Below, piece after piece: positions 26,878-58,504 of a stretch of 64,000 nt of DNA. The position numbers were made by a program, and so were the translations under genes. Source of the DNA: Psammoneis japonica (Eukaryota); contig QPGO01000061.1 of the NCBI GenBank assembly GCA_008632985.1, forward strand, positions 1 to 64,000, read 5' to 3'. Positions within the stretch are counted from its first letter, which is position 1, and the number at the start of each line of letters is the position of its first letter. The notes below the pieces were generated by a model. That model had not been told where the DNA came from. It did not search any database and was given only the letters and a program-made list of their open reading frames with translations.

Positions 26878-27110
26878 ACAAGATTTTAGTTTGTCACGCA
26901 CAATTGTGTGTGCTCTTAGTTCCGTGTGCGCCATGCGATGCAGTTTGCTTTCAAGCCACATGGCTCACAAGAACAATGACAGCAGTGCCTGCATCAACGA
27001 CACCAGTCTTTAAGCTCCTGTGATGGTCTCTGTGCAGAGACTCATCTGCTGTCCAGACAGCAGCAAGGAGTCATTGTTTTCTTCCACCCAGTCATCTTCA
27101 TTTTCTGTCA
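26865..27110 (+). repeat. 3' LTR of copia B
   Basis: Follows the PPT; followed by the TSD. Confidence 0.95.
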
Positions 27111-27837
27111 CTCTGGAGCCCTTGTGGTTTGCATTTGTGACCATGCAACTCAAGAAAGAATGCATGACACACTGCATTCTGCAAATGAGATGGAGCAAAG
27201 GAAAGAATGAGCATGACTGCTCAATCTGCCACATTTTTGTTGGCCTTGTGAGGCTCTGCTTTTGCCTTGGCCTTAGCTCTGGATGCATCACAGTTTGCAG
27301 AATTGATGACAGCATGGCCACAGACAATCCCTTGAGAGCGGTCTCTTGATCCTTGCTGCTGCCCTCAACATGGGTCACTTTTCCAACATGTGGTCCTCCC
27401 AAGACAGGGGTGCACAATGTGGTGTCGACTTTGACAACACCTTCCGTAACTTCAAAAGCGACGATGATTTGACAATGCTGGGAAACGCAGGGACAATGTC
27501 AGGCAAAAAAGAAAAAATCCATTCTGAGAGTCGATCAAGTGCTGAGCTGAAACCACCGCTGCACAAAAAAGCACTTCTTGCGCCGCATGGCATGTCCGTC
27601 TGCAATCCGCTGGTTCATCCATGAACCTGGTGAATGGCAGACCCTGCGTTTTAGTTATTCCTGTCTGCCTGTCCTCATGTTTCGGCGATTGTCAATGGCG
27701 ATTGTAGCGGGAGGAAGTAAAGATACCTCGCGTACAATGATCCTGAACACCGCAATGCGTTAATGATGCTAAGAACAGGCCTTTTTACTGAAAGAAGATA
27801 AAAGCTGGGTTCTTTTTGTTTTGAGAGAGCGTGTAGC

Positions 27838-29052
27838 ATGGCTCGTTCAACAAGTCTATTTTATTCGACAAGCTTTCTCGTTTTGACGGTCTCATTTGCC
27901 CTCCTCGGGTCGTTTTACTTTTCTTGGCGTGTGTGTATCCAGATTGATAAGGAACGAATTCAGCATGACATTGTTTCGTTCCATGATGGCCGCATCCATA
28001 AGGCTGCTACTGTCTCAAGAAAGTGCGCAACGTGGATTCCTCGTGAGAATCGCAAAGTGCTCTTTGTCGATCTGCCTACCATGGCGACCTTTCAACGTAC
28101 AAAGGAAAACTTGACAGAGAACCTTCTGTCCTTCAAGACGGGAGAGTTCTACATGTCTGCTGCATGTGATTTTGCGTTACAATCCAACGGCTTTGTAGTT
28201 GACGAAACACGATGGGACGACTTTGAAATCATGAAGCTTGAAGAACTCCAATCCTATCACAGAATTGTGGTTGGCTGTTTGTATTACAATTGGGATGCTT
28301 GCCCATGGGGTAAAAGTGATAGAAAAGGCCTTGCAAAAACAGTGAAGAGACTGGGACCAATTCAATGCAAAATGAGAGTCTTGTACTGGTGGGAGCACGA
28401 CGAAAACGAGACACCGCAGTTTCTTGGTCTCGACTTTCTACAGCCGCAACAAATCCTGACGCCATATGCTTTTAACAAGAAAAACATTCACCTTGGATAT
28501 TTCCCTCATGACTTGCTGGATACGAGGAATCACATGTCGGTACCAGAGCGAGAAAGGACTGGCTTAATACTGGGAAAAGATGCGGCATTTATCCTGTACG
28601 AAGAAACCTTGCAGACCTTGGAGGTGTTGCTCGACCACAACTTCACTCTGCACTCCACTTGTCATGACGGCAATTGTTCCATGTTGCCCAAACGAGTAAT
28701 CAATCATCCATACTTATCTCCTAAACAGTACGCCGCCTTGACAGAACAAGCGGCGTTTCTCCTTGGAGTTGGGTACCCCATTACGTCGCCATCTCCAATC
28801 GTGGCCATGAGCCGAGGCGCAGCATTCATAAACCCTATACAAGAGGGTGGAGATTCGCAGCACCCTCCCTTGGCACATCTTGGTCCTCCGTATGTATACA
28901 ACGTGAATTTGACTGACGCACAAGAGGTATTGCGAGCTGCCGAATCAAGCGTGAAGCACAGATTCTCTTCGTTTGTGCCTGCTGAATTCCGAGTTGAAAC
29001 TATAATCGATAGAGTCTGCGCCATGCTGGAGAATGAGTCGCCATGTTTATGA
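27838..29052 (+). CDS. Glycosyltransferase family 18 (MGAT5-like), copy 2
   Basis: 404-aa ORF nearly identical to 2062-3276; differences cluster at the N-terminus. Confidence 0.8.
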   Translation: MARSTSLFYSTSFLVLTVSFALLGSFYFSWRVCIQIDKERIQHDIVSFHDGRIHKAATVSRKCATWIPRENRKVLFVDLPTMATFQRTKENLTENLLSFKTGEFYMSAACDFALQSNGFVVDETRWDDFEIMKLEELQSYHRIVVGCLYYNWDACPWGKSDRKGLAKTVKRLGPIQCKMRVLYWWEHDENETPQFLGLDFLQPQQILTPYAFNKKNIHLGYFPHDLLDTRNHMSVPERERTGLILGKDAAFILYEETLQTLEVLLDHNFTLHSTCHDGNCSMLPKRVINHPYLSPKQYAALTEQAAFLLGVGYPITSPSPIVAMSRGAAFINPIQEGGDSQHPPLAHLGPPYVYNVNLTDAQEVLRAAESSVKHRFSSFVPAEFRVETIIDRVCAMLENESPCL

Positions 29053-29269
29053 AAACCTTCTTTGTGGTCCCAAGGCATTACATATTATATTGACTATAAG
29101 AGCTGGAAGCCTCAACAAAATCCTCAAGTGTCACAGAAGTTTAACGCCCTACAGTAATCATTCCAACATCTTCTCAGTGGTGAAAAAAAGCTACGACAGA
29201 ACAAGATACGAAAATGTATCGGTATTGATTCTGACAAAATGTATGTAGCCTAACCATTGCTGCTTTATG

Positions 29270-29295
29270 CTCTCTCTCTCTCTCTCTCTCTCTCT
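29270..29295. repeat. (CT)n microsatellite
   Basis: About 13 CT units; only about 3 at the paralogous site near 3490. Confidence 0.9.
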
Positions 29296-30583
29296 GATGG
29301 AGGATTCTTGGTAGATCCTATGTATGCGTACTCCCTTGGCATATTTGAGATCGGATCTTTTCTTTAAGACGATCGCGGTACAAATAAAATGCGCCATCCT
29401 AGAACTGTAAAAGATCCCTCAAAACAATCCGACCTCGTCATCTCGTCCACGCTTCGAGATACGCGTTTCGAACAGTTTGTCTCTGCCAGTATTCTTGCAG
29501 AACCACAAACAGTCCACTCCTTTGCTTACATTGTAAACAGAAATCGTCGCCCCGCCAAAGCCTTCTCCAGGTTTGAGGCTGTGCAACAAAATGCGATCGT
29601 ACATTAAAATCGATGAAGGCTTTCGCAAAGCAACAAAGGTTATTGTCCGTCTTACTCTAGAATGTACCGACCAGCGTCACGAATTCCTCCCACCGTCTTG
29701 GAAGGCCTCATGTCTCTACTCAAGTCTTTGTTTCCAATCAAAACGACGAAAAAAGACTCACGATGCGGAGTGGCATTGATGCAAAAAAAAAAACAAATCA
29801 TTTACATTCATTAAATTACAAAACCAGTCATGTCGCCTACGAGGATCGCCTCTGCCTCAATCACTCAACCAATGTTGTTGAGTTTTTCGATGTGATCATT
29901 CGCCAATTTATTCTAACTGGCGTTTTGGTTGCTAACCCAAATTCCAAGCCGGGATTTTCCGCGTTATCTATTGGAAGTCTGCACAGTTACCATACTCATA
30001 CGATGCAATTGGACTGGAAACTTCTCAGCCTCGTGCAACAACAGATCTCGAGGTAGGCACTAGATGAGAGGGCGGCCGAGCTGGCCGGTGAAAATCGATG
30101 ATGAGATTCGATCGGCGCTCAACTTCCAAATATGTGAAATAGAAAGTAGAGAAACTGTAGGGCAAAACTCTCGACACAATAATCTATGTGTTATGGAATG
30201 AAGTGATCAAACTATAATGTTAATGTGAAAGGGTATTTTACATCATCCTTGGTTCGCCGTTGACAAGCTACGTCCAAGTGATGCAAACGTCCATGCAATC
30301 AAATGAAGCACGTTCGAGTGGCACATGTATGCTTCGAATGTGGGAAGAAACCAAAAGCCCGACCACGGAGTCTCAGTTATTGCAATCCAATGACAACTTA
30401 CGGTTCCTCCCCAACGAAAGTGTTAATACAAAGTATGAAACATGCAATGCACAGGGAAATGCCCTCCTTCTTTCTACTCTCGAGAGACCATTCTCCAAAT
30501 GCAGATACTGAATATGTATGCAGAACACGAGGCAACTTACCAATGTTCTGCAAATATGCAATATGCAACAAATAAATTAATCC

Positions 30584-32065
30584 TTACCAGTCGTCCAAGT
30601 AGTGCTTAGTGCTGATCTGGAACGCCGCAACGTCATGGTTGTCGGCTTCGTCTAAGGTCCCGGCTGTGAAGCCGACGAAGACCTGTCGGTCTCTGGAGTA
30701 TCCGCCGAATCTGCAGGCCAGACATGTATGGGCTCGGAGAACGGGGTAGGAAGGCTTGCGTCTATGTTGCCAACGATCGTGATAGACAGACACGGTTGAT
30801 CTATCGTAGTCTACCCACAAGCCTCCATAATCTCCGGCTAACGTGCGAACTGGACGATAGGAGGTTTCGGCAAGCTCTTCGATAGTTCCGTCGTCCTTGA
30901 CGAACTGGATATGAATGTGATTCATACTGTCGTCATTTTTATTTGTCGTCTTGTCTGAGAAAAGAGAGATCCAAGGTGAGAACATCCAAAGAGTGAGGCA
31001 GCTGAAGAAGATTAACAAGGAAAAAGTTTCCACCATGATACTTACATGAATCTATCTCAACCACAAGTGCAGGTTTAGGTCCACCGTGGTCATAGACACC
31101 AAGAGCACCGCCGGGATTGCCAACGGAATAAGCACTATCCTTGTGCATGGTGAATGTCATTCCAGAGGCTGCCCCAGCGTTATTACCATACATGCGGTAG
31201 ACCATTTTCATCGAGAAGAAGAAATCGTTCCGAGACATGGTCAGCGGAAGGAACGCGGAAGAGGCTTGTTCACTTGGCCTGTCAGGAGTGAGACGTATTG
31301 CGCAACAGTGCGGGCAAAGCCTGATGGTCTTTGGATAATCGCTGTATTCTTTTAAAGAATACCCATTGAGTTCAAAATCCGGGACATCGTCGCAATGGCC
31401 GCGCCAATCATACTCGTTAAGGTCTGCGCAGCCACCAGGGTCCGTGAGCGTCACATATCCAATGCACGAATCGGTTTGACCACACCTGTTCGTAACAGTG
31501 AGAGTAACACGGGTTGTACCGATTTGGTAATAACTCCCGGGCTTCTGATTTTTCCTTACGAGAGGACGACCCGAGGGGTCGTATGACCCGTCGTCAATCG
31601 ACACCCACCTGCGATCGCACGCGGGTGGGCGCCTGGCTTTCATGGTCACATCCTTGCAAAGTGCCACAGGTCTGCAGCAGCAGTGAGGGCAGCAGTAGGC
31701 CCCGTCAGTTCCGCCTTCTGGAACGACACCGTCGGGGTCCTAAAGAGAAACACAGAGAAGCAGTGATTTGAGACGATTCATGATTGGACCGATGCCGAAG
31801 CGCTGTGCATCATTGCCAGACCATATGGAAGCGACTTACCTCCACTGGCAAAGCAGGAGAGTTGTCCTTATCCGTGTCTTAAAGGCATCAGTAATTGCAT
31901 TCGTGTGCGAAATGTGCAGATGCGAACAGCAATGTGTCAGCAAGAACGAGGGCATGAAATTTACCGAGTCTCCAAATCATGTCAACAGTTGGCATGCGCT
32001 GCTTCCTCACCTTGAGCATGCGCAACAAGGATAAGAGAGGCTATAAGGAAGGTATCAAATCGCAT
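30584..32065 (-). CDS. Secreted HYR-like + L-type lectin protein, copy 2
   Basis: Same 4-exon structure; VVEIDS, WVDYD, VFVGFTAGT; stop at 30584. Confidence 0.85.
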
Positions 32066-35000
32066 GAGAATCGATCGTTACTATAACAATGCAAAAGTAG
32101 CTGATTCGTTGTCGTCGTGTTTTGACTTTTTCTTTTTTATGGGAAGTCCTTTGTGTGAATACCGATTGCATGCAGTGCCTCGTCCTTTGGTTTGTCTGAT
32201 GGCTCCACTTCTCGCCCAATAGGAAGACGAGACCAAGCGATGTCTTAAATGTTCAGGAACATTTAAACGGTGAATGGGAATTCAAGACATGATGTACTTA
32301 ACGAGAAAGTTTTTAATTATTTGTAGTCAGGGCATAATGAATGAATACGGTGAATAAGAATTAATTAAAGGCAAGATGTATTTAACGAGAAAGTTATTAT
32401 CCAATTGTCGGAAATATCCAACTTTAAATGACATTATTGAATATGGAACATGTTCTTGGCAGAGATCATACAACCATCAAGCCATCGACATCGTCATGAT
32501 AAATGTTCAAGAACATTTAAAGTCGCGTTTTTGACAGCGTCCTGGATGTCCCACGCGCGGACAACATCAGCAGCTTGTTTTTAAATGTCAGAGAACATTT
32601 AGAGTCGCGTTTTTGCACACAACAGCTTCCGTTTTTTACCGTTCGCGAAAAAAGTTCGCACACTCTGTTTCTTGGACAAAATTTCACTCATCATCCACGT
32701 CACGACCCCACCCTTCCAATCGATCTTCTGCATCGAATCCCCAAGAGCTGCGCCTGATGACTCGCCCCAGCCCCAGCAGGTGGGGGCTTGTGCTGCTGGG
32801 CTGTGACACCAACAGTTTTTGTCACATGCAGCAGTGGGCGCCCGCACATTTTTGCACAACTGTGGCAGAATTTTGTGCCACTTTGTGCAGCGAATTTGCT
32901 GGGAAATCCACTTGACAACATTTTTGGCGTGTTGTTTTGCTCAAAGCCAGCATCCTTGCCCCCCCCCCAAGTGATTGCAAATGACCACATGGCTTTTGAG
33001 CACAAGAAGCTGCCTGTTCGCTCGTGCACTGAGCTGGCACAGTGTGCTGCTTGATTGACAAAAAAGGGAGCTCAATTTCTGGAGCACTTGGCTCAATCAT
33101 CTAGAGCTGGTGGCTGCTGCCGAGCATGCTTGAGTCATCATCTGTGCAGCACCATCAAAGAAGTGTGGACAATGTCAGTGGATGTCTTCAGCCATTGTGC
33201 AACTTGGGGCGGTGCACTGCACTTGCTTTCTCAAGGGTGAAACACAAGAATTTCAACAACGACACACAGATTTGCAAGGTTGCAAGATGCACACCTTTGC
33301 TCGCTCACACCGCCATTGGAGCAGACTTCAATGATGTCATGCGAGCAACACCGCCGCAGTGCTGCACTCATGTTTGTGCCCAGCACTGCATTTGTGTGGA
33401 ACATGGGTCACCTGTGCTGCACTGGTGGTTTGTCTGTGTCAGTTTTTTGTGCCTTTTACTTTGACAGATTTCTCAACATCTCTTGATCTTTGGAGTTTTT
33501 GCTGTAGCTCCTTGACTGCATCTCAAATGCGTGCCTTGTTGCACCCTTCCAAGCCCTCTCTCACATCATGTTGTGCCTTGAAGTTCTTGTGGCTGGCCAA
33601 CTTTGTTGCTGCAGCATGTGCCAGGCTCACTCAAGACAGAGGTTTTGCCTTTTGGGGTTGAAGCACTTCAATGTCCCTGTCAGACATCTCAGAGAAGTCT
33701 TTGACACTGTCCAGAGTGGTTGCGTGTTTTCTTGATTGGCGGCTGTGTGAGTGTTGTGCCCAGCTCTCAGCATGCTCTGGCAACTTGACTTTGACTTTAC
33801 AGCGAATCTGACTGTGCTTCTTCTGCATCTCTTCTGCACCCCTTTTGCATCTTCTGCTGTCATTCCCTTGGCTGGGAAAAGCAATGCTGATGCACCAAGT
33901 GATGACTCAACTCTCTTCACATGCTTGGGCTTTGACTGCAATGAAAACAGCCCTCAATCTCAGGAGGTGCCTTTGACAGCTCAACCTCTCTGACACTCAT
34001 GTTTTGAATGATGCACTGATCATGTCTGCACAACCCTCATCATGTGGGCATCTCCTTCAATGCAGCAGAGCAAGTTTGCTTAAACTCTGGGATTTTGGCA
34101 CACACTCTGGTGTGTCCCACTTGCCAAAAGGCACTGTGCTGCCCACCAAATGAAGGTGCTTCATCTTTTCATAAAGCACTCTTTCAACTGAGACAATGTT
34201 TGCCATTTCAAGGCTGCACATCTCTTGTTGCTGCACTGCACCAGGGCTGGCAGCAGGGGATGCATCTTGCTGATGTCAAGCACCACTTCTTCCGCATGTT
34301 GCTTCTGTCCACCTGCCAAGTTTTTTGTCAACAGTTGACCCATTGTGCTGTGACCACTGGGCTGCAATCTCCATTTGTTGTTGCAATGTTGTGGTGATAA
34401 ATGCTTCTGCACACCTTTTGCTTTTTGCACCTCATGCCACACCATGCTTTGAGTGCAAAATCTCAAAGTGTGCAATTGACTAGAAGATGAGACCAGATGA
34501 TGTCTCAAATGACATTCAGGAACATTTGACCAATTCAAGACACGATGCATTTAAGGAAAAAACAATTGTCAGTTTGTCAGCTTGCCCAAAATTAAGACAA
34601 GCCAGACAATGCCCTGAATGTTCAGGAACCTGATGCATTTTAGGACAAATGCTTTTTTCAATTTGTCAGAAACCTCTGAACCTAAATGACATTGTTGTGT
34701 GTGGAATGTGTTGCAAAAGCATTCCTGGCACGGAGCATGCAACATTGTCAAGGTCAACACTGGCATGACGAATGTTCAAGAAGATTTAAAGTTGCATTTT
34801 TGTGTCCATGTCCCACTGGTGGCAGCTGCTGCTGCAGCTTGTTGAGTGTCAAAGAACATTTGTGAGTTGCATTTTTGTGTGCAACAGCTTCCAACTTTTT
34901 TTGTCATTTGCTAAAAAAGTTCATGCACTCCATTTCTTGGACAAAATTTCACTCTGAATCAAAAGGGTTTCTGCACAGAAATGGCAATCTTCTGTGTCAC

Positions 35001-36279
35001 AGCCCTTTGGCAATCATCCACATCACATGACCCCACTCTTCCAACCAATCTTCTGCTGCACATGGGATCCCGTTGTGCCAGCAAGCAGCAGTCATCCCTT
35101 TTTGCCTCAACCCAAAGCTTCAGAGGGCTTCTGAGGGGTTGTCAAGGGTCTGAGAAAGTTGCTCATGATGTTGTGGGCAAGCCAGCAGGGCTCCATTGTC
35201 ACGTGTGCCAGGCTTGTTGGTGCACTTGGCAGCATGATTGGCAGTTGAGTGCCCTCAACACAAATGGGTCTCACCCATTGTTTTTGATGCCACACTCAGC
35301 ATGCCAACCCCAGATTTCACCCATGTCATCAGCACAGATTGGCCCCATGTGGGCTCTTTCTTGGGCATGTGCTCCAATTCTTTGTCTTGCGTGCCAGCCC
35401 CTTCTTGGGCCTTCTTCTTCTGGCCAGCTTTGCACTGTTTTTTGCATGCAGAACAAGTGTGTTTGGTGCACCCAACTGTGTCACAGCCACAACAATGTTC
35501 AATGTTTTGTGATGACAGAGTCCTTCAGAGAGCAAGGTTGGTTTGGGGCAGTTTTAGGTTGTCAGGGCAATGCAAAGAGCAAGGTGACCATAAATCCACT
35601 TGGTCTGATGAGTGAAGTGACTTCTGTTGCAAATTGTTTGTCCTCTCTGCAACACTTCTGCATGAATTTTCTGGCAGTCAACTCACTCTGGCTTTGGCAA
35701 AGTCTGAGCAAATGTTGACAGAGGGTGAGATTAGTGCAGGGGTTTGGGCACACTGAAATGCAACAACAACGGCAGATGGAGAAATCTCCTGAGCACCACA
35801 ACAACTCCCTTTTGACTTGGTTCAAGAATGGCAGCACAGAGGAACAAGCAGTGATTCTGAAGACTCTGCTGGTGACACAGAAGAGGCCACTTCTTCCTGC
35901 CAACCACAGTGCACAGTGCATGGCAGGCCAATCTTCACCACTTCTGATCAGCTTGCCACAAGTCTTGGCGACAAAGCCAACAAGGCCAACAGGACCAAGG
36001 TCCAACAGCTGGCATCTTTGGGGACCTCCGTGGGGTCACAAAGTTGGCACTTGTGCTCCAAATGCTTGACAAGGTCTGGCTTTTTGTTGAAGACTTGGTG
36101 GTTAAAGAACTTTTGGAGGGGATGTGCTCAATGTTTTGGTCAGAGTGGCAGAGCCTGTGTCTGCTGACAATGCACTGTCTGTCTGTGTTCTTGTCTTGAC
36201 TGAGCTTTGGTCATGAGCTTGGTGCAATCCTCTCAAGGGTTGGGGAGTCAAGCAATGATGCAGCGAGCTTCTCCTTTGC

Positions 36280-38700
36280 GCAGCCAAATTCACAAATGTG
36301 AGAAATGTTGGCCATCTGTCCTGCTGCAACAGTCTCTGGAACCTTGCCATCAAGTTCAAAGATGTCATGGACTGCCACTCTTGAGTTCACAAACAGCTCC
36401 CTCAGCGGTGTTGGGCCAAGGAGTGCAAGGCTCAGTTTGTCAGATGTGACAGTCAGCCTCCCTTGCTTTCTCATTGAATTGCTCCACCATCTCTTCTTTT
36501 GCCCCATTGACTGTCATGGTGTGGGGCACACTGTCCTGCATGAAGAGTGATGACATGCCTTGTGCACCAGATGTTCAGACTTCAAGGGACAGGCACATGC
36601 CAGCCCATTGGACATTTCAAAAACTTGTGCACAACCATTCCCTCATCTGGATTTGACAGAGGAGAACATGGAATCAGAGCACATCTCCTTTGCAGTGTGC
36701 CTGCATCACAGTTGGTGGTCACATGTCCAAAAGCAATGCAACAATGTCAGGTGCAAGACCATTCAAGCATCACACTGAGTGATGACCTTGATGGCATTCT
36801 TGACATCTTTCAGGCCAATGGACCAGCTCTTGGCCAAATGATCAGCCTGGACCTGGAGTTCTTGTCATTTCATCTTGAGTGAGGAGAGACTGACAGAAGC
36901 AAGAAGCATGTGGTCATCATGTGTGTTTGAGATGTCACACAATGGTTGCTTCCCCAGAGAGTCTGAGATTCTTTTGAGCCATGGCACATGAGAGCTTTGC
37001 ACTCATGATTTGAGCCTGAGGACATGCTGCACTGTCCCCAGTCTTGTGCACACAGCCAAGAGAATCCATCATGAAATTCTCTCTGGCTTGGTCATGCTCT
37101 GTCACTTGTGGGTTCCACTCTTGGGACTTGCAGGTCAAGTCATGTGCAACACTGCACTGCATGGTTGCTTTGTGCTCAGAAGTGGGTGGCTGGTGGGCTT
37201 GACAGTGGTGAAGTGACTGGCAACCTCACACAACTGTCTGCCATGTTGTCATGAAATTTGCACCATCTGCCTCCTTGATGATCAGTCACAGCACGCAATT
37301 GATTGTCAGGCTTTGTCAACAGAACTTTCAGTTTTAAGGAAATCTCTGCATCACTCAGCCACAACTGCATGGGGCACAAGAGATTGTGCTCAAGATGCAG
37401 TGTGTGGACAGCCTGGTGGACAACCAGGATGTGGGGTTGACCCATGGTGGGTTCCATGTGCACATTGCAGCACCACCAACCATGCACAAACACACGCCAG
37501 CACCAAGATTTGGGTCACACCCTGCAACATCTGCTGGGTGCTCATGAACAAGCAGCATTGAAGCATGCTTTCCTGGTGCACTTGCACCAGCATTGCTGTC
37601 TGCTTCAGCCCAACTTTCCTCATGCACAACTGTCAACATGGCAGTGTCTGAGTCAAGTGCAAGGATTGCAATGGACTGAGTTGCACAGTCAGAGGGGAGG
37701 ACAGTCAGCCCTGGTTCTTCTTGAACAGCTCACACACTGGAGCCATGTTGTCATGATCACAATGTTGCTTGGTGGTGGGAGGCTTTTGCTGAGTCCTCAG
37801 CCTTGGATTTGCCTCCAGCCAGAGTCAGATGGACCCTTGAGCTAGACAGGAATGGCAGCAATGGTTTTTGTGAGTGCCTCAATCTACTTGGCATTGTCAG
37901 CGTTGGCGGCCTTGGATGACTTGTCCTTTGGTGTGTGACCGCATCTTGCAAGGATTTCAGTTTCTTCTTGGCCTTGGAAGACATGGTGTTGTGCTCCTTG
38001 GGAAGACAGCAGTTGTCTTTGATGTCTTTGGTGAGAACAACATCATGCTTGCACTTGCCAGTCTCAAAAGCATCAATTTGCAGCTGTTTCCTGTTGCTGC
38101 CAGGCTTGGCCTGCTTGACAAAGTCCTCAAACAGGATGATGCAAGCCTCAAATGACATGTCCTTTTCAATTTGCAAAAGTTGTTGGATCTTGGAATGATG
38201 TTCCTTGAGTGTGCATTGTTCAACATGAACATGCATGCAACTCTCAAAGAAGTTCCAGCTGTGATGTTTGTCGTGGTGCACAGAAAACCCATTCCCCCCA
38301 AGATGGAGCCCAACTTGGGGGACTTTTCCCTCCCTTGACATGTCTGGCTGCTGGCCCCTCCACTGCCACATGTGGAGGGGTCCTGCTGCAACTTGAGGGT
38401 TTCCCGTCTGTGTTGCATCATGTCAAGGGTTGTCATGTCAAGGTGGCTCACCTGACTTGCACTCCCATGATGTCACCCAAGAATGTCACTCGCTCCAGTT
38501 CTGAGACTTGTTGATGTCACACTGTGATGCAATTTTGCAACATCAGATCCACTCCACCCCACAGGGATGACGTCACCATTGCAACGTCAGAATTTTTGAC
38601 CTGGCCCGTCTGTGCTAGACTCTGAAATGGGTGTTTGTGCTGTCTCACATTGTGCATTTTCTGTCTTGGCTCAGCAGTTTTGCCCAATCTGACGCTTCGC
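36280..38700 (-). mobile_element. Degenerate, truncated copia (different CoDi-like family): gag end, protease region, integrase
   Basis: WNFFESCMHVHVEQ, CCLPKEH (YYxPxEY), GCDPNLG, HILVVHQAVH...HNLLCPMQL, DSMFSSVKSR*GNGCAQVF, EPCTPWPNTAE, GKVPET...ISHICEFG. Ends are approximate. Confidence 0.8.
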
Positions 38701-41338
38701 ATTTCGACACATGATGGAATCATTGTGCAACAACTGGCAACAGTGTGCTGTTCTGCTGTTGGTCAAACCATCCTGTTGTTTCCACTTCTGCCAAATTTGT
38801 CACTGTCGGATGCCACACCAGCTGCCGTTCCTGTGATCTCATGCTTCCATCTTTTGTTTTTCTTCCAGAGATGCGCCCTCCGCTCTGCAACTGTTGGTTG
38901 CCACAAGCAATGCAATGTGCCACCCCACAGCACCTGTTGTTCTTTGCACATCCAACCCACTCTGTGGTCATTCTCCATCCTCTTGGTTTTGCAACATTTG
39001 CATTTGAACCCAACAAGCTCCCACCTGTGAAAGACATTTGCAGCAGCAAGAGAGCCGTGTGCCATTCTTGTTGTCAATGGAAAGAACATTGCAAGTCACA
39101 CGTGTGGCACACACTTGCCTCTTTGATGTCTTTGTCCTCCTCAGCCTGCTTGGTTTCCCGCTCTGCATCTTTAAAAGCAAACCTTGCAGCATCAATCTTG
39201 ATTGTTTCTCTTGTCTGTGGCATCCTGTCCATTCATTGGCTGTGATGGTTTGGGGGTTCCTGTTGTTGGTGCCATTCATGTGGGAGGAAGACCGAGTGCA
39301 CCCCCGGTTGCGCTCCACCACCAGTTGTCCATGCTTTCTGTCCAATGTTCAGTCAAAAAGCAGATTTGTGTGCTGGTTGCAGCTCCATCAGATGTGTCCT
39401 CTGCAGTTTTCAAAGTTTTCACAGTTGCTGTTTGCAGGTGCTGGAAATGTCCATCGCCGAAGTTCTCAAATTTGAATTTAAACAATGATGACGTGCGGTT
39501 GTAAATTTGTTCACAATGCAGTCATTTTGAACAATGCAGGCATGCAGCCTTTTAAAAAGTTTGTTTCAAACCAACGTTTTCCTTTGTTGATGAAGATCCC
39601 TGGCCCAATGTCCAATTTCCTTGTGATGTGGACGCCTTTTTGTGCGGCACGTCACAAATGCAATGTCAAATTTTAGGCCCAATGCACCACTTGCAGTCTG
39701 GCAGCTGCCATTGACGGTGCCACCGTGGCCCCAACCCATGCTTGACATTGTCAAAGCAGCTCCTGCTCACTCCATGGTGGAGTTTGTGTCTTTTGTAGCT
39801 GCCACTGCCACAGCCCCTCCCCGTGCCTTTTTGTGGGTTGACAGTGCATTGCCACAGCCCCTGACTCTGTGATTTGCAACGTGCTCGACAGCAGAGTTCA
39901 TTTTCCATGATTTTTGAATTTTCCACTTAGTTTTTTTTTGTGAGTGCATCCATCATTGTTGGTCATCATGTCCTCCACAGAGTTTCAGGGTTGCCACAAC
40001 CAGCAAAATGCCAACAATTCACATGCACTGGCTTTTGGGGGCAGCCCAACCCTTTTGACAGAGATTTTGGGTCTACAACATTGAATGGCACCCCCCTTCC
40101 TTGGAGGTGCCACTCTCAGTCTTGCCGGGGAGCAAACCCATGGCTCTCTGAGGCGGTCTCAATGTTCAGAGGTGGGGGGGATGGCCAAAGGCATCCCAGG
40201 CCACGTGAGCAACTTTGCAGAAAGATGTCACCTGGGCACAGCTGCAGCCGGCAACCCAGGCAGTTGCTCAAAATGTTTGGAGACAAGGAGCATGGCATCA
40301 ACTCAAGCCACCCAAATGACATGGTGTCAGCTTGAGCTGCCCCACATGACATGGCATTTTCCTGTAGAAACATGGACAAAGATTAAAGGAAAACAAGAGG
40401 TTGAGAAGACAAAAAATGCGCTGAATCAACATGATCCGTCAAATGCTGTGGAGTGATTCACTGACTGAGAATGTGAGAATGAAATGACAGCATGATGACA
40501 CAAGCAGTTTTTGTTCATTTTTGGACTTTTTCTCACCTCTCTTTTCACAGATGCACTCGTCAGAAGCAAAATAAATCATGCCATGAAATCCAGCAATGGT
40601 TGACGATGCCGTCAAGGTGGTTTCAGTGGTGGTTGGCGGTTGGCGGTGGTGTGTGTTGAAATGGGCAAGGATGAGAGGGAAATCTGACCTGACCATTGTG
40701 ACACAGCATGACATTTCACTGTGTGGTCCATGACACTGCATGGTGTGCCAGAATCTGACATTGTGGTGGTGACATCAGCAGTCATGTGGGAACAATGTGA
40801 AACATCATGAGCACACAGAGGGAAATCTGACCTTGCATTGTGATGTTTCACTGTGGTGAGCCAGAATCTGACATTGCGGCCATGACATCACAGCATGCAT
40901 TGACACGGGGAAGTTTCATGGATGGTGTGCTCATTGAAATGTCCAGACAGAAACACAACAAAACAATGCTGTTAATGGAAAAATGTCTGGTGTGACATTG
41001 CCAAGCAGAGGGACATCAACACAAGGGAGGTTTGGGGGGAAAGTCACTTGAGATGGTGCACCCCTGACATGGAAACCCAACACAAGGGACTCCCTTGAGA
41101 ACAAGTCCTTTGCAATGGAAAAAACACCCTCAAGCTGTCCAAAGTCTGGTGAAACCCATTTTTCCTGTGTGGGACAGCTGGGCCAAGTGCTTTTTGGCAG
41201 AAGTGGCATGTTGTCCACATTGTTGGGAACCAAAAAAGAACAGTTGCACAAGTTTGGTGTGCTGTCCTGCCATCCTGCTTGCACTGGACGGACTTGGCAC
41301 AAGCCCATTGAAATGCTCTCTGGTGATGCTGGAGATGA

Positions 41339-41560
41339 TCTCCCAAGAAACTTTGACTTTGTCATCAATGAAAGTTTCAGCAGGCTGGGGATTTGTTGCT
41401 GCAGCCAGGTGAGGAGCTTGGGCAATCATCTCTTCACACACATTGGCACATCTCCCAAGAAACTTTGACTTTGTCATTAATTGAAGTTTCAGCAGGCTGG
41501 GGATTTGTTGCTTCAGCCAGGTGAAGGGCTTGGACAATCATCTCTTCACACACATTGGTG
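41339..41560. repeat. ~112-bp tandem duplication within a degenerate unknown ORF
   Basis: Two copies of atctcccaagaaactttgactttgtc...tcttcacacacattgg. Confidence 0.85.
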
Positions 41561-42430
41561 CAGTTGGTCTGGATGTCATCAATTTTGGGGGGAATGGCTT
41601 GGCTGTCACGAGTGGCCATGACAGGCAGGCTTGCAGATGCTCTTGAACTAATTCCATCATCTCATGCAGCCAAGTTGTTGTCAATGATGACAGGTGGAAC
41701 TTTTGCATCTTGTCGGCTCCTTCAGCAGTGCAAAGGTGATGACACCCCACATGGCAAATTCTTCACTTTTTGGTTGTGATCCACAATCATGCTTCTTTTG
41801 CTGCCACAAATCCAGTGCAGCATTCACTTGTCCCCAGCATTCAGGAGAAAAGAGCACAACACCCTGTCTGCCTCTCTGTCTCCCTCCCAGATTTTGGGTG
41901 TTGTCACTTGCAAGGATGATTGCAGTGACAGTCTGTTTGTGCAATGACTCCTGCACACATTTTGTGCTTTCATCCATCCCTGCCTCCTGCAGCCTTGTCC
42001 AGCCAGCTTGACCCAACACTTGGATTGGGCTGGAGGTGGTGGGGATGAATGAAAGTGCAAAATGTGCTGCACGTGGCAACACCCAATGCTTTTTTGCTGA
42101 TCAAGCCATGAAAAAAAGCCACACTTTTGCCACAAGAGCAAAAATGGTGACTGGACTGCACTTGGTGCATCATGTTTTGACAAGAGTTTGATGTTTGGCA
42201 GCCTTCATCCAATCTTTTGCATCAACAAGGATGTGATGCAGTTGTTGGAACAAGTGGAGTTGGTGTTGTGGTTTTTTCATTCATTTTTTTGTGAACTGTG
42301 ATTGATGAGCCATGGTCAGTCACACTTGGAGTGGATGTCATCTTGCATCTGTGCAGTTTGCCACACAGCATTGCACAAATTTTGTCAATTGCTCAACCTT
42401 TTTGCAAAAAGCATTTTGAGCCAGCATGAA

Positions 42431-42986
42431 TGGTGTTTCCCATCTGTGCATTTTGGTTGGACCAAATTGGCATTTTGGTCAAACCAAAATGCTTTTTTTG
42501 TCAACCAAATTGCCAGACCGACCAAATCAATTTGGTCAACCAAATTTACATTTGCAAAATCTTGACCAAATTTGTTCTACAGAGACCATCAATGTCAAGC
42601 CCAGAAGACAACAAAAGCCTGTCAATGTGCTGAATGTGGCACCAGAATTAATTTGAATTTTGCACGCATGGCATGTGAAGAGCTGGACGTGACAACTGCC
42701 CCTTGCTCATGTGGCTGCATTGACCACACAATGTCCACTTTCTCTCTTTCATGTGTGTTTCTGCACAAACAATGCTGATGTGGCTTCTAAGAAATTTGCG
42801 TGGCATGTTGACATGCATGTTTTCCAATGGAAGATTCCCGCTGAAAGCGCTCCTAATTCCGCAGATCAAAATGATGTTTTTGGGAAGCAAAACAATTTTG
42901 GCAGAGAGCTTCAACTTTTGTCAACAAGTTTGCACCAACCAAAACAGCAATTTGGGTGGACCAAAATGCACATTCAGGAAACACCA
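42431..42986. mobile_element. MITE with ~40-bp imperfect TIRs and internal ACCAAA/TTTGGT repeats
   Basis: tggtgtttcc...tgtgcattttggt at the left end; accaaaatgcaca...ggaaacacca at the right end. Confidence 0.7.
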
Positions 42987-44079
42987 ATCAACCAAAAGTG
43001 TCTTGAAACATCTGGGAGGAATGAAGATCCTAGACATTGAGAGTGGTCGGTCCCCCCACTTTTTTTGCTCACATTTGACCAAAACAGCTGGTGATTTTCT
43101 GCCCAAATGTTTTTTTGCTGCACTTGCAGCATGGCAACCATTGTGACTTTAGACAATCCAGGTGAGTGCAAAGGAGGGTCACTGCCATCACACTCACTTC
43201 AGAACAATATTCTCCACGTGACAGATCATTGATGTGATGTGGAAGTGTGATGGCAAAAAACTGTGTTTTTGAGAACAGTCCATGCATGCAAACCAGAACC
43301 AATGCAACCACCTGCTTGCCACCTGCTGTTTTTTATTTCTTGTGAACCACACAATTCAAACAATGCAAAGAAGCACCACAAAAACCAAAGACACAGGGTG
43401 AAAACTTTTCAAAATCAATTGGCAAATTTTTCTCCATTGCTCCTGGATCTTTGTTTTCCTTGTTGCCTTTTTTGCTTGTGGTGTCAAGCTCTGCAGCAAT
43501 GTTTCTAACTGCATCTGCACAATCGTTGTTGGCTGACAAGAACTCTGCCTCACCCGAATGCACAAATTCAAGGCTCTGTCTGATCCTTGGGAGCGTTGAA
43601 TGCCAAGGTGCCCAAGCAACAACAACTTTTGTTTTGCCAACTTTTGCAAGCCACTCTCCTGTCTTGATGCATGTCACCAAGCACTTGTTTGACATCATCT
43701 GCAGACACATGGCTGTCTGCACCTGCCTCAATGACAACATCATGAAGATCATCTTGCACAAGCCAAAGCCTCTTCTTGTGCAGACTTGGCATCCTCGTTG
43801 GAAGTTGAAGCACATGCCTTGTGCAAGATCAAACCACTTTTCAAGAGGACTGATTCATCATTCAACAATGCACACAAACCAGAATCACAAGAAAGTGTCC
43901 ACAGCAGACAGATCAACAGTGTGCGAAATGCTGTTTTTATGGTGTGTGGCATGTGGAGTCTGCAGAGTGCAGATGATTGACGGTGTGAGATCACGAGCTG
44001 TTTGGACCTTGCACGCAAATCTCAGTGTTGTGTTTCACAACATGTGTCAGTGTCTCAGCATTTTCTTTGTTCTGAATGC

Positions 44080-45572
44080 TGTGGAGTGGGGCGTGGCTGC
44101 AGAGAGCAGAGAGCAGAGAGAAATTGTTTTTCCTGCCGACAGCTTTTTGACAGATCACAATCATGACGAAAGCCTTGACGACAACGCCGATGGGGTTTGC
44201 TCCCCAGTCAAGCAGCACCTTCCAAAATGGGCTCCCGACCCTCCATCGCACAATGGTCCATTTTCTTTGCAACACATCCTTTGCATTGTTTTGGTTTTCA
44301 CCATTTTCCTCATCTTCTCCAACCTCAGCACAGTTTCGTCGACCCTCTCTTCCTCATCCTCTCTGCCTCTGAGTGCCAACCCTTTGCTTTCCTTCCTTTC
44401 TTCAACTGACTTCAAACAATGACACAGCTCCACACCACCCCTTCCTGTCACCTCCAACAGCCCCACCTCCCAAATTTCTCCACCCCGTCATTGACACAGC
44501 CCCACACCACCCCTTCCTGACACCTCCAATGGCCCCGCCTCCCAAATTTCTCCGTCCCGTCTCTGCCTCTCAACCATGCCAACACCATCAGCAATTGCTC
44601 CGGTTGCCAACTGTGTCACTCTGCTGGATTAAAAGCCAGCAGTTTTCCCAAAACACACTCTTTGACCAGGCACCTGCCAGTTCTCTCTGCTGTTTGTTGC
44701 TTCGGCATGGACGAGTTGTTCCTCGACCCGGATTCATTTGATGACCCTTCTGATTGCTCCTCCAAGTGCAACCCTTCTGATGACTCCTGCTGTGAGTGCA
44801 ACCCTTCTGACATCCATCCTCAATCCAACAATCACAACTGGACCACCACCTGAATGATTTCCTTCCTTCTTTCCTCGGTTTGTCCCACGAATGACAACGC
44901 TGCCGCATGCTCCAATGCTCCAACAACCTTTGACTCCCAAAGTTGGTGTCAACAAGACTTCCCAAATCTCATCTCTCATCCTTCCCTGCATCGGTCTTAC
45001 TCTGACTTGGACTTGCCAGACCCAACTTGGCATGATGCCATTCTCCCACCGATCACCTTCCGCCCAAGTCCTCCACCTGCTCCCCATCTTCCTCCGTTTG
45101 CTGTCCTTCCTCTGCCACCCCATTTTGCCCATTTTCTCTTCGATCCTTCGGCTCCTCCCTGCTCAATCCCCAAGCTTCCATCCTTTCGTTGCCCTCCTCG
45201 AGTCCACCGTTTCCTCCACCAACTTGGCATTACCTCCAATCCATCCTTTTGTCCTTTCCTTGTGCTCGCCTCGCCGTGGACCCCCACATTTTCACACCAT
45301 CACCAGACCTTGCCCTCCTCCTTCGCGAGCGCTTCTACGACGAGACAGCCTGTGGTGAACCTCCCCCCTCCTTCATCTACCGAGTTCCCACATCCCTTCT
45401 TCACTTTGACAACTTTCTTCTCTACATCGACAACTGCCTTGACAACTCTTTAGACAGTGTCCGCACTCTCGGCCAACCCTTTTTGTCTCCATATCCGAGC
45501 GCACTCCGCGCGACTCTCCCACCACCTATATTTTCTCCAGTCTACTCCCCTCCAACACCATCATACCGGTAG
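44080..45572 (+). pseudogene. Degenerate Pro-rich ORF of unknown origin with internal 72-bp and 30-bp tandem repeats
   Basis: Successive frameshifted ORFs; duplication at 44421-44561; DPSDCSSKCNPSDDSCCECNPSD repeats. Confidence 0.4.
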
Positions 45573-46920
45573 ACACCCTAATCATTAGACTACACTACAA
45601 GATTTCCAACTGCACGGTCATCAAAGATCAATGAAGGGTGCAAGCTCGGCGACGGGTAACAAAGCAACCAAGTTTGCTCTCTTGTCTGCCTTTTCTTCTG
45701 TTGGCACTGACAGCAAAAAGCATCAAATTTTGCGCTTGGTGATTCCCCTGGGGCCGGCGCCAACAGCACGAAATGTTATCGATTTCCTCTGATCAGTTAG
45801 AATCCACTCTAGTAGCTAGTCAAGAGTGACACAGGAGACAGGAGCAGCAGCTGCCATTATTGCACCGATTGTCAGCGAGGACACATCATGATGCAAAGAT
45901 TTCTTTCTTTTTTTTGTCATTGAAAGGATTGAAGGACTGTTGGATATTCCTCGACAGCTGAAGCTCTTTTTGGTGTAAAGCTCTAGTAGCGAATAATTCG
46001 CTACCTCTTCCCTGGGATAAAGGCTGGCGACAAGATTCTGCATTACCGATTACCGTATGTTCTCTTTGGCAGCGTGGTGCAATAACGACAGTATGGTTGT
46101 GGGCGCTCATCTCTCGGCCACGAGCTACATTTGTTACCAAAGGGCATCACTGTTCAATACTCATCGAGCTTCTATGGACAACAATTCCAAACAACAACGT
46201 GCCCATTCACAGCTTACAACTGTACAGGATGCGAAATTTCTTCGCCTCAATAAAATGGATGGTTGCTTCCGAATACGACATCGTCTCTTCTGAACTTCCA
46301 ACTGCATTGAAAGGAGAGCAAAGAAACTGCCGTGCAAAGCTCTCGAAGCAATGATCTACGTGTTATGGAATGAAGTGATCAGATTATGATATTTATGTGA
46401 AAGGTTATTTTACATCATCCTTGGTTCGCCGTTGACAAGCTACGTCCAAGTGATGCAAACGTCCATGCACTCAAATGAAGCCACGTTCGAGTGGCACATG
46501 TTGTACGCTTCGAAGGGGAAAAGACCAAAAGCTCAACCACGTAGTCTCAGTTTTCACAATCCAATGACAACTTACAGTCCCTCCCCCAACGAAAGTGTCA
46601 TACAAAGTATGAAACATGCAATGCGCAGGGAAATGCTCTCCTTCTTTCGGCTCTCGAGAGACCGTTCTCCAAATGCAGATACTGAATATGTTTGCAGAAC
46701 ACGAATAACTCCATTCAGCAACTTACCATGTTCTGCAAATATGCAATATGCAAATAAATGATTCAATGGGTAGCCTTGTAGTCCAAGTAGTGCTCACTGC
46801 TGATCTAGAACGCCGCAATGTCGTGGTAGTCGCCTGCACCAGAGTATGTCCCGGCAGCAACTTACCATGTTCTGCAAAAATATGCAACATGCAAATAAAT
46901 GATTCAATGGGTAGCCTACT

Positions 46921-48476
46921 CTAGTCCAAGAAGTGCTCACTGCTGATCTCGAACGCCGCAATGTCATGGTAGTCGCCTTCACCAGTGTATGTCCCGGCTG
47001 TGAAGCCGACAAAGACCTGTCGGCCCTTTGTGAACAAATCGGACAAAAAAAGCTGGGCTTCGAGAATATGATTGGAAGGCTTGTTTCTATGTTGCCGACT
47101 ATCATGATAGACATACACGGTTGATCCATCGTAGTCTACCCACAAGCCTCCATAATCTCCGTCTGACGTGCGAACTGTACGACTGCCGGTTTCGGCAAGC
47201 TCGGCGTTAGTTCCTTCATTGTTGATGACCTGGATATGTACGTGATTCCCACTGTCGTCGTGTTCCACTGGGGTATGATCTGAGGAAAGAGAGATCCAAG
47301 GTGAGAACGTCCAAAGGGTATGGCAGCTGAAAAAGATCAACAAAGGAAAAGTTTAAACCATGATACTTACATGAATCTAGCTCAACCACGAGTGCAGGTT
47401 TAGGTCCACTGTCGTAGACACCAAGATCACCGCCCCAACCACCTAAGGCTGAAGTGCCTGCACTGTCCTGGTGCATGGTGAATGTCATTCCAGAGGCTGA
47501 CCCATCGTTAGCACCATACATGCGGTAGACCATTTTCATTGAGAAGAAGAAATCGTCCCAATACATGGTCAGTGGAAGGAACGCGGAAGAGGCTTGTCTA
47601 TCTGCACGGTCAGCACTGAGACGTATTGCGCAACAGTGCGGGCAGAGATTGATGGTCCTTGGATAATATCTGCATTCTGATAAAGAACACCCATTCAGTT
47701 CAAAATCCGGGACCGTGTCACAATGGCCGCCCCAATCATACTCGTAAACTTCTCCCTGGTCTGTGCAGCCACCAGGGTCCGTGAGCGTCACATATCCAGT
47801 GCACGTGTCGGTCCCACCACACTCATTCTCCACGGTGAGAGTAACACGGGTTGTACCAATTTGGTAATAACTCCCAGGCTCCTGGGTTTTCCTTACGAGA
47901 GGACGACCGCTTCGATCGTATGACCCGTTGTCAATCGACACCCACCTGCGCTTGCACCAGGGTGGGCCCCTGGCGTGCATGGTCACATCCTTGCAAAGTG
48001 CCACAGGTCTGCAGCAGCAGGTGGGGCAGCACTGGGTCTCGTGGCTGTCAGTTCCGCCTTCCGGAACGACACCCTCAGGGTCCTCGCCTTTGGAATCATC
48101 GAACGGAGCCTGCTCTTCCCGGATAAAACGCTAAAAGAGAAACACAGAAAAGGAGTGATTCTTCATTCTTTGAGATGATTCATGATTGGACCTCACTGCC
48201 GAAGCACCGTACATCATTTGCCAGACCATGGAAGAGGCTTACCTCGACGGGCAAAGCAGCAGAGTTGTCCTTATCCGTGTCTTTATGGCATCAGTAATTG
48301 CATTCGTGTGCGAAATGTGCAGATGCGAACAGCAATGTGTCAGCAAGAACGAGGGCATGAAATTTTGGAATTTACCGAGTCTCCAAATCATGTCAACAGT
48401 TGGCATGCTCCGCTTCCTCACCTTGAGCATACGCAGCAAGGATAAGAGAGGCTGTAAGGAAGGTATCAAATCGCAT
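46921..48476 (-). CDS. Secreted HYR-like + L-type lectin protein, copy 3
   Basis: Same exon structure; VVELDS, WVDYD, VFVGFTAGT; stop at 46921. Confidence 0.85.
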
Positions 48477-48549
48477 GAGAATCGATCGTTACTATAACAA
48501 TGCAAAAGTAGCTGATTCGTTGTCGTCGTGTTCTGACTTTTTTCTTTTT

Positions 48550-48935
48550 ATGGGAGCCGCGTTTTGGTTTGCAGTTCAGTGTCTTTCGGTCTTGGTCTGA
48601 TGCTCGTCTCGACCAATAGGAAGACGAGATCAGACGATGCTTTAAATGTGCAGGAACATTTAACGTGGTGAAATGGAATTCAAGACATGATGTACTTAAG
48701 GAGAAAGTAATTATTTATGGGAGCCGCGTTTTGTTTTTCAGTTCGGTGTGATGCTCGTCTCGACCAATGGGAAGACGAGTCCAGACGATGTCTTAAATGT
48801 GCAGGAACATTTAACGTGGTGAATTGGAATTCAAGGCATAATGTATTTAGGGGAAAACTAATTATCAATTTGTCGGCTCGCCCAACAGGAAGGCGAGACC
48901 AGACGATGGTCTTAAATGATCAGGAACATTTAATG
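48550..48935. repeat. Tandem ~150-bp repeats (about 2.5 units) upstream of lectin copy 3
   Basis: Repeated tgggagccgcgtttt...gaagacgag...ttaaatgtgcaggaacatttaa units. Confidence 0.85.
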
Positions 48936-49149
48936 AATTTACTGCAAGAAACTTGTCATCAAGTTGGCGGACTAATGACATCATTGAACATGGAACATTT
49001 TGTGAAAGTTTGCCCTAGAGAGAGCTGCTCTAGAGAGCAGAGAGCCAAGCAGAGAGCAAGCAACATTGTCAAGGTTGACATCGGCGTGACAAATGTTCCA
49101 GAACAATTGTCGTTGCATTTCTGACGGCATGTCCCACGCACATCAGCAG

Positions 49150-55400: not shown

Positions 55401-55787
55401 TCACAGAAACGACCGCTGGGATTCAAGTCTATCTCTTAAAGACTGGTGCCAGAGCAATCCACGCCATCGAGTTCAAAGACAGCATGCACAGAGTCAACAT
55501 TCATTAACACGCCAACAAACGTCATGAGTCAGTCCACGGACAACAGAATCGAACGGTTCGATGAACTCTTCTATCAGAGCGCTTCACAGACGGCCTATTG
55601 CACAATTTTCTTGGAGAATGAGAAGCCGATACATTTTCCTAGACAATGAATAACGTCTATTGCCAACTCGTACAGTTCATATTTGAGACGCTTTCCAAAA
55701 TTTTTGGTTGTATGAGATTTCCGTAGAGGAACACAGTCGCGGAGTTAACCAAGAGGCTAGGTACTTGTGCAGCATTGCTCTCTTGAT

Positions 55788-58478: not shown

Positions 58479-58504
58479 TTAAGAAGTTGGAGAGAGGAGA
58501 GTGC

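Follow-up and report, generated by a model that had tools for sequence, protein, structure and literature searches.

Positions 1 to 64,000 of contig QPGO01000061.1 (assembly GCA_008632985.1) of Psammoneis japonica, apparently a diatom, form the window analyzed here, in which blocks depleted of TA dinucleotides alternate with islands of ordinary genes; the subject of this work is which TA sites survive in the eroded blocks and by what process the others were lost. Segmentation by TA density delimits seven TA-depleted blocks amounting to 43,790 bp, with 175 TA and rho TA of 0.02-0.10, and seven normal blocks amounting to 20,210 bp, with 817 TA and rho TA of 0.39-0.66 (0.07 and 0.57 overall). At 500-bp resolution the block borders are sharp. 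Two copia-type long terminal repeat (LTR) retrotransposons, copia A and copia B, lie inside eroded blocks, and the gene islands, which harbor for example a GT18-like and a BMT5-like open reading frame (ORF), lie outside and are spared. The losses of TA and CpG coincide in the same blocks, where rho CG is 0.20-0.59 and CA and TG stand at ∼1.7-1.9 times expectation. Depletion is limited to these two dinucleotides, AA and AG having nearly the same rho in eroded and normal DNA (1.17 vs 1.11 and 0.98 vs 0.97, respectively). The gains of CA and TG in eroded DNA are equal (rho 1.75 and 1.76), indicating that both strands are targeted. Peaks of GC skew are present in the window, across which the CA and TG gains are equal overall, and the assembly contains a single N at window position 551.

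Survival of TA follows a flank rule common to both strands

The 16 NTAN tetramers were each counted in the eroded and the normal blocks and grouped according to whether TAY (Y, pyrimidine; R, purine) is present on neither strand (YTAR), on one strand (YTAY and RTAR, here one-TAY), or on both strands (RTAY). The per-kb ratio of eroded to normal DNA is 0.340 for YTAR (98 vs 133 sites), 0.071 for one-TAY (70 vs 454), and 0.014 for RTAY (7 vs 230), a heterogeneity of survival among contexts with a chi-square of 139.5 on 2 degrees of freedom (df; p = 5e-31). Normalization to all Y-R steps having the same flanks gives the same picture. A sequence-only reading of this DNA had proposed that the TA sites remaining in the most eroded parts are mostly YTAR, and it had named equal depletion of all NTAN tetramers as the contrary outcome; the counts show no such equality. 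In block 32670-45292, from which the proposal was drawn, 31 of 50 TA are YTAR, with binomial p = 4e-13 against the island fraction of 0.163 and p = 2e-11 against the fraction of 0.188 in intact relatives of the copia elements. The same reading had described TAY and RTA as nearly absent, and TAY indeed falls there from 45.2 to 1.58 per kb (∼29-fold), against a fall from 35.6 to 6.34 per kb (5.6-fold) for TAR. Its five example sites were located at 33101, 34785, 34681, 37841, and 39672.

The pattern is general within the window, the YTAR share being 0.46-0.80 in all seven eroded blocks and 0.09-0.20 in all seven normal blocks. It persists at 0.56-0.57 after block edges are trimmed by 300 or 500 bp, and it is unchanged when isolated and clustered surviving TA are analyzed separately. 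Most reverse-complement tetramer pairs survive to concordant extents, for example CTAA and TTAG (0.46 and 0.44) or ATAA and TTAT (0.050 and 0.055), and survival is in this sense symmetric between strands.

These counts are described by a strand-additive model in which the A of each strand is hit independently at a rate set by its 3′ neighbor, the survival of xTAy being exp(-(r[y] + r[complement of x])). A fit by Poisson likelihood yields rates of 2.82 when this neighbor is T, 1.68 for C, 0.68 for G, and 0.45 for A. Two rates, for purine and pyrimidine, describe the data better than a single rate (chi-square 169, 1 df), four rates better than two (chi-square 25.7, 2 df, p = 3e-6), and the goodness of fit of the four-rate model is 19.6 on 12 df. 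As a check on additivity, the survival expected at one-TAY sites from the geometric mean of the YTAR and RTAY values is 0.069, compared with 0.071 observed. An A at position +2 appears protective by about two-fold (likelihood-ratio test, p = 2e-6), TACA surviving at 0.12 vs 0.02 for TACC and TACT; this effect is tentative and may be either a true preference at +2 or a by-product of overlapping TA steps. TATA has vanished, with 0 sites in eroded DNA vs 62 in normal DNA.

Table 1. Coordinates of eroded blocks, transposons, and control segments within the window.
Feature	Position	Strand	Remarks
Eroded block containing the five example sites	32670-45292		50 TA: 31 YTAR, 18 one-TAY, 1 RTAY; rho TA 0.06, rho CG 0.20, CA/TG 1.8
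Decayed copy of the island flank 32216-32689	34476-34954	+	Match in purine/pyrimidine space; inside eroded block
Unmutated paralogue (island flank)	32216-32689	+	Ancestor proxy for 34476-34954
Copia-type LTR retrotransposon A	8780-15581	-	LTRs 8781-9025 and 15338-15581; RVT_2; tblastn to intact relatives
Copia-type LTR retrotransposon B	20282-27111	+	Same family as A; LTRs 20281-20527 and 26864-27110; RVT_2
Eroded block	1-1750		Duplicate of copia B end and adjoining repeat
Eroded block	6606-14774		39 TA, 18 YTAR; takes in most of copia A
Eroded block	15415-27524		51 TA, 25 YTAR; takes in copia B and unclassified repeats
Eroded block	49114-55430		18 TA, 12 YTAR; rho TA 0.04, rho CG 0.20
Small eroded block	57111-58437		2 TA; 58075-58484 related to 18011-18431
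Small eroded block	60510-62003		5 TA, 4 YTAR
Unmutated gene island, control	27525-32669		228 TA, 17% YTAR; paralogues 1751-6605 and 45293-49113 likewise unmutated
Near-normal 640-bp patch within copia A	14775-15414		15 TA, 3 YTAR; rho TA 0.39; usual context proportions

Copia A is TA-eroded, with 50 TA remaining and CpG partly retained. The near-normal patch within it takes in some of the LTR together with the 5′ end of the internal region, and its counterpart in copia B is eroded. The patch looks as though it had escaped, and erosion inside a single element can be patchy. In the blocks containing the copia elements the erosion of TA is more complete than that of CpG (rho TA 0.07-0.10 vs rho CG 0.37-0.59), and TA is eroded faster than CpG, the two losses seeming to be uncoupled.

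CpG survival has a flank dependence of its own, ranging from 0.24 to 0.90, with values of ∼0.25 between A/T (ACGA, TCGA, TCGT) and of 0.65-0.90 between G/C (CCGC, GCGG, CCGG); this range is less than four-fold, far below that of TA, and reverse-complement pairs differ by up to ∼1.7-fold. At conserved Arg columns CGN codons are mostly kept in copia A and mostly lost in copia B, TA being nearly gone in both.

Several segments of the window are repeated. Positions 1-3571 duplicate 25768-29362 with 98.4% identity over 3,560 aligned bases, covering the end of copia B, the adjoining repeat, and the first part of the GT18-like gene; the gene part is unmutated, and since six of the eight TA differences between the duplicates fall in it, the pair is uninformative for recent mutation. 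Island segments 3591-6204, 29750-32330, and 46290-48718 are paralogous to one another and have weak lectin/HYR-like Pfam matches. These three are about 80-86% identical, with transitions about as frequent as transversions, and all are uneroded although repeated within 45 kb, so that duplication by itself may not be the mutator's trigger. A short unclassified repeat at 19059-19520, 27108-27299, and 1335-1525, with 84-89% identity in purine/pyrimidine space, adjoins the copia LTRs and has tandem-like copies near 19.1-19.5 kb.

TA is the ancestral state and is lost after integration

An excess of YTAR among surviving TA could in principle reflect no flank preference at all, if the ancestral sequences were rich in YTAR or if new TA had arisen by C-to-T change at CA or TG. 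The baseline for ancestral composition consists of 79 intact related copia loci (387,175 bp) containing 19,753 TA; the search patterns by which these loci were retrieved contained tyrosines, and the set therefore comprises intact relatives only and serves as a baseline, with no replication of erosion elsewhere. In these loci 3,712 TA (18.8%) are YTAR, 49.7% one-TAY, and 31.5% RTAY, close to the islands (16.3%, 55.6%, and 28.2%, respectively) and far from the survivors in eroded blocks (56%, 40%, and 4%). Among 1-kb windows across the 79 loci, one has a rho TA of 0.25 and none is lower. The ancestral bias needed, about 25-fold for YTAR relative to RTAY, is thus excluded for the copia family, and it is implausible for the other blocks.

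The origin of block 32670-45292 bears on the same question, and some of the apparently surviving TA could be new. No credible Pfam match was obtained among its 86 ORFs, and together with the 44 ORFs of 49114-55430 these gave five sub-threshold, chance-level matches only. The longest ORF, 43346-44422, has no homologue in an exhaustive HMMER search, and tblastn of 25 copia polyproteins against the window detects no copia remnant beyond copia A, copia B, and the duplicate. The designation of the eroded DNA as transposable-element blocks in the sequence-only reading accordingly stands for the two copia elements and is unproven for this block. Contigs of public run X1, the one public run containing the window (0.83 of words) and possibly the assembly's own sample, give rough summed depths, which are no copy numbers and carry no evidential weight where low, at 80% likeness of ∼1-3 times single-copy for 32955-38290 and ∼10 for 38291-40281, against hundreds for the copia family. 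On the same rough scale the depth for copia B is 6,000-48,800 vs ∼57 for single-copy DNA, with solo-LTR-like joints, which hints that the copia family is present in very many copies. More than 1,000 intact relatives of the copia elements occur in the protein collection at 55-66% identity; no copy of the same family was found there, the best identity being 66%. Four matches on long contigs are distant and carry tandem reverse transcriptase matches. A relative of the copia elements is placed beside a protein cluster named 'Blackbeard family protein', Blackbeard being a diatom CoDi element (PMC2806351), which gives a weak hint of a diatom, and the GT18-like island gene is placed nearest to basidiomycete protein clusters.

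The direction of change was read from columns conserved among 40 intact copia relatives, to which the codons of copia A and B were mapped. At 95 conserved Tyr sites the TAY codon is kept in eight cases, replaced by TGY (Cys) in 50 and by CAY (His) in 26, with 11 other outcomes; 76 of 95 are thus Tyr to Cys or His, and changes are almost only A-to-G or T-to-C and at TpA. None of 132 conserved His, Cys, and Trp codons has become TA-bearing, indicating that new TA from CA or TG is rare. The first-codon A of conserved Ile, Met, Thr, Asn, and Lys columns now reads G at 14 of 15 sites that follow a T and at two of 221 that follow another base, and at none of the 11 that follow an A; the 15 T-preceded cross-codon sites are too few to rank TAT, TAC, and TAA. 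Among xTA codons in conserved columns of Leu, Ile, and Val, YTA (Leu) survives eight times with three visible losses, and RTA (Ile, Val) once with five.

Outside the transposons, the island flank and its decayed copy contain 27 vs 7 TA and 22 vs 3 CG, and at all 13 differences involving TA the TA sits in the normal copy. TA is therefore the ancestral state. In the decayed copy three of 10 YTAR sites are kept and none of 16 in other contexts. Taking the normal or TA-bearing copy as ancestor proxy, 13 of 32 YTAR sites are retained, compared with seven of 52 in other contexts (odds ratio 4.4, p = 0.008), a dependence on context that the absence of flank preference does not predict. With the two independent baselines at 16.3% and 18.8% YTAR vs 56% among survivors, the excess of YTAR in all seven blocks of different origin, and the one-way changes at conserved codons and in the flank pair, a survival pattern without flank preference is very improbable.

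Between copia A and copia B there are 808 transitions and 157 transversions; their identity is 85.6% in bases and 94-97% in purine/pyrimidine space. The island paralogues, in comparison, have a transition/transversion ratio near 1. The two LTRs of one element are identical at integration; here they differ at CA-vs-TG sites, four in copia A and seven in copia B. The pair aactaag and aactgag, cited in the sequence-only reading as a case of incomplete protection, corresponds to the TTAG/TCAG column in the alignment of the two copia A LTRs. The decayed gene-flank copy, which is not a transposon, is mutated inside an eroded block. Between the window and the X1 contigs, positions 32589-37941 show nine differences, all transitions: five at CpG, three at TpA (TA/TG or TA/CA), and one other. 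The process thus acts on DNA after integration.

The same observations bear on editing of RNA or cDNA before integration, whether ADAR-like or linked to reverse transcription, with the changes carried in by retrotransposition. The best-resolved targets are retrotransposons, which is in keeping with such editing. ADAR prefers G 3′ of the edited A; here a 3′ G is slow and pyrimidines are faster than purines, the opposite preference. The divergence of LTR pairs, the mutated flank copy, the differences from X1 at TA in single-copy DNA, and the roughly equal targeting of both strands lead us to reject editing before integration for the bulk of the changes, and as a general explanation it is scarcely credible, even though ADAR favors U 5′ of the edited A (according to Mettrop et al., bioRxiv 10.64898/2026.01.13.699255).

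Strand assignment and the candidate agent

Survival alone cannot separate a pyrimidine 3′ of the A from a purine 5′ of the T, and strand-resolved data are therefore needed. At YTAY tyrosine codons the sense A has changed 22 times (giving Cys) and the antisense A eight times (giving His). One-TAY sites in aligned pairs have changed on the TAY strand and on the other strand in a ratio of 19:13, and pooled with the tyrosines the ratio is 41:21 (p = 0.015). A product balance, defined as the excess of YTGY plus RCAR vs YCAY plus RTGR over baseline with CpG-derived products split evenly between strands, attributes 641 inferred events to the TAY strand vs 262 to the other, a share of 0.71 (bootstrap 0.59-0.86), which rises to 0.83 in block 32670-45292. 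RTAR sites read in the coding orientation of copia A and B yield CA nearly exclusively (37 vs 2, and 41 vs -5), which argues that the bias at tyrosines is one of context and not a sense-strand effect. Decomposition of survival and strand share together assigns a 2.8-3.5-fold effect to the +1 base and a 1.1-1.4-fold effect to the -2 base.

The best overall explanation, to which we assign a probability of roughly 0.6, is a mutator of TpA that acts after integration with a rule set by the +1 base, its agent being an adenine deaminase specific for T-A-Y. The data show a process that acts in place on integrated DNA, within bounded domains, and that turns the ancestral TpA into TpG or CpA on both strands under a flank rule symmetric between them; the chemistry is inferred. 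In this explanation the domains are silent and each strand is hit independently, at a rate governed mainly by the +1 base, for which T > C > G > A, pyrimidines being about 3-4 times faster than purines and the base 5′ of the T having little effect. YTAR, slow on both strands, outlasts the other contexts, and RTAY, fast on both, is the first to go. In chemical terms the agent is most likely an adenine deaminase with a T-A-Y pocket, producing inosine that is read as G, which may be recruited to methylated or heterochromatic repeat DNA. Cytosine methylation probably accounts, as a separate effect, for the decay of CpG in the eroded blocks. In diatoms, transposons bear CpG methylation, and a RID-related DNMT4, whose function is unknown, is present in many species (PMC9998398). 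The preference of an enzyme for TAY/RTA, which the sequence-only reading had suggested, is borne out insofar as survival is strongly unequal among contexts and symmetric between strands; its likening to the TAC preference of TadA is not supported as stated, T being at least as fast as C at +1.

Several results weigh against this explanation or qualify it. YTAR is not immune, being ∼3-fold depleted overall, and the decayed flank copy has lost seven of its 10 YTAR sites, all of those listed being TTAA; protection is thus not absolute, as had been stated in the sequence-only reading. The polarised samples are small, making this evidence thinner than the static counts. As to the strand assignment, the split of tyrosines by preceding base (22:8 vs 28:18) gives a Fisher p of 0.33, a Cys share held constant at 0.66 describes the data no worse than the context model does, and the pair-based strand test taken alone gives p = 0.38. 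The product balance relies on the even strand split of CpG-derived products; with the island baseline it is 0.37 and 0.50 in the two copia-rich blocks, showing no preference there, and with the intact-relative baseline the share at YxxY sites of copia A is 0.47. At Tyr columns the two copia elements coincide more often than expected under independence (both Cys at 16, both His at 7, one of each at 11), and some of the erosion may go back to a shared source that had been mutated beforehand. The protective effect of A at +2 may partly stem from neighboring TA steps such as TATA.

The chemistry could also be that of thymine. A TET/JBP-like dioxygenase or another enzyme might modify the T of R-T-A to 5-hydroxymethyl- or 5-formyluracil, which mispairs with G and leads to T-to-C change. 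Base J in kinetoplastids and 5-hydroxymethyluracil in dinoflagellates show a preference for T that precedes A, and 5-formyluracil gives rise to transitions from A:T to G:C. By complementarity the footprint on TAY/RTA would be the same, and since sequence cannot tell A-to-G on one strand from T-to-C on the other, this alternative fits the tetramer counts, the fitted rates, and the product balances. The sole experimental report of a comparable process (Mettrop et al.) puts forward adenine deamination, with an ADAT2-like protein as the candidate, and we consider thymine modification unlikely.

Error-prone repair synthesis, of the kind known from the second phase of antibody hypermutation, has been considered as well, in which frequent T:G mismatches arising from deamination of 5-methylcytosine in methylated repeats would recruit a patch repair by a polymerase-eta-like enzyme that miscopies WA (W, A or T). 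The losses of TA and CpG share the same blocks, TA contains WA on both strands, and polymerase eta acting through non-canonical mismatch repair favors WA hotspots (PMC7884765). WA also includes AA, yet AA and AG are unchanged in eroded DNA and no first-codon A preceded by A (0/11) has changed, as opposed to those preceded by T (14/15). TA erosion furthermore outruns CpG erosion in the copia blocks, where a by-product should not outrun its trigger, and the near-exclusive transitions and the saturation of sites are unlike the error spectrum of a polymerase; repair of this kind is therefore even less likely than thymine modification.

Returning to the TpA mutator and its adenine deaminase, a broader proposal, to which we would give appreciably less than even odds, is that diatoms, and with Bigelowiella perhaps SAR (Stramenopiles, Alveolata, and Rhizaria) algae more widely, carry a dedicated DNA adenine deaminase that would rewrite T-A-Y to T-G-Y on either strand in silent, methylated repeats until the transposons are dead.

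Comparison with known systems

No natural enzyme is known to defend a genome by deaminating the adenine of chromosomal DNA. If a dedicated deaminase is indeed responsible, it would be a natural A-to-G counterpart of repeat-induced point mutation (RIP) and of APOBEC, with the order T > C > G > A as its enzymatic fingerprint, and a natural DNA adenine deaminase acting on T-A-Y would be of interest to builders of base editors. The quantified flank rule provides a testable specification for candidate enzymes and may help to find the enzyme. In genomes eroded in this manner, repeat finders, gene callers, and ages derived from LTR divergence are badly misled, as illustrated by the copia elements, whose identity is 85.6% in bases compared with 94-97% in purine/pyrimidine space.

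Hypermutation of antibody genes by polymerase eta resembles the present case in its mutations at A:T, in its requirement for a 5′ T or A, and in TA being a hotspot on both strands (PMC7884765); it differs in that AA is unaffected here, nearly all changes are transitions, and sites are saturated. Changes of the ADAR type, an enzyme acting on double-stranded RNA, are not in evidence, LTR pairs having diverged after integration and G at +1 being a slow context. RIP in Neurospora and other ascomycetes is similar in that dense, domain-wide transitions kill repeats and in having a dinucleotide preference that leaves a footprint in dinucleotide ratios. It converts CpA to TpA and so creates TA (PMC2621366, PMC7882544), and the direction and the base are thus opposite to those found here, where TpA becomes CpA or TpG and the hallmark C-to-T change at CpA producing TpA is absent, TA being lost (rho 0.07 vs 0.57). 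RIP is triggered by the duplication of sequence; in the window the island paralogues at 84-86% identity and the gene part of the 98.4% duplicate are unmutated, and much of the eroded block 32670-45292 (32955-38290) has a contig depth near single-copy.

With respect to known deaminases, in TadA and ADAT2 the target A follows U, as in U33-A34 of tRNA, and the context of TadA is TAC(G) or UACG, with C at +1. Wild-type TadA is reportedly capable of sequence-specific DNA editing, to judge from the title of a paper. The likeness to TadA and ADAT2 lies in the A-to-I chemistry and in the T or U preceding the target A, which is found here. The differences are that T is at least as fast as C at +1 (2.82 for T and 1.68 for C, followed by 0.68 for G and 0.45 for A), that G at +2 is not required, and that their natural substrates are tRNA loops and not chromosomal DNA; the analogy may be regarded as a lead only. 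APOBEC3 is a host deaminase identified by a strand-specific, flank-dependent signature in mobile-element DNA. A flank-dependent signature in such DNA is shared with the present case, but APOBEC3 converts C to U on one strand only, in single-stranded cDNA during reverse transcription, and here A:T changes to G:C on both strands after integration. Among engineered enzymes, ABE8e A48E edits A within YAC (PMC13109818).

The closest parallel comes from Bigelowiella natans, where giant-virus and virophage DNA that has integrated undergoes hypermutation restricted to TpA (Mettrop et al., bioRxiv 10.64898/2026.01.13.699255). No other description of such a process was retrieved in a literature search that returned nothing on TpA erosion of diatom transposons; the phenomenon otherwise rests on this one 2026 preprint in another alga. 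The main text of the preprint gives no flank rule past the dinucleotide and makes no mention of diatoms. Both cases show almost only A-to-G and T-to-C changes at TpA, depletion of TpA with gain of CpA and TpG, and clustering in domains of foreign or transposon-like DNA, and an adenine deaminase is proposed there as well. They differ in host, a chlorarachniophyte there and apparently a diatom here, and in depth, erosion being far deeper in the present window (rho TA 0.02-0.10 vs 0.45 reported for the region derived from a nucleocytoplasmic large DNA virus) and accompanied by loss of CpG. The preprint reports 231 new mutations in Bigelowiella, with which the +1 bias described here can be compared, and such a comparison would address whether one enzyme serves both lineages.

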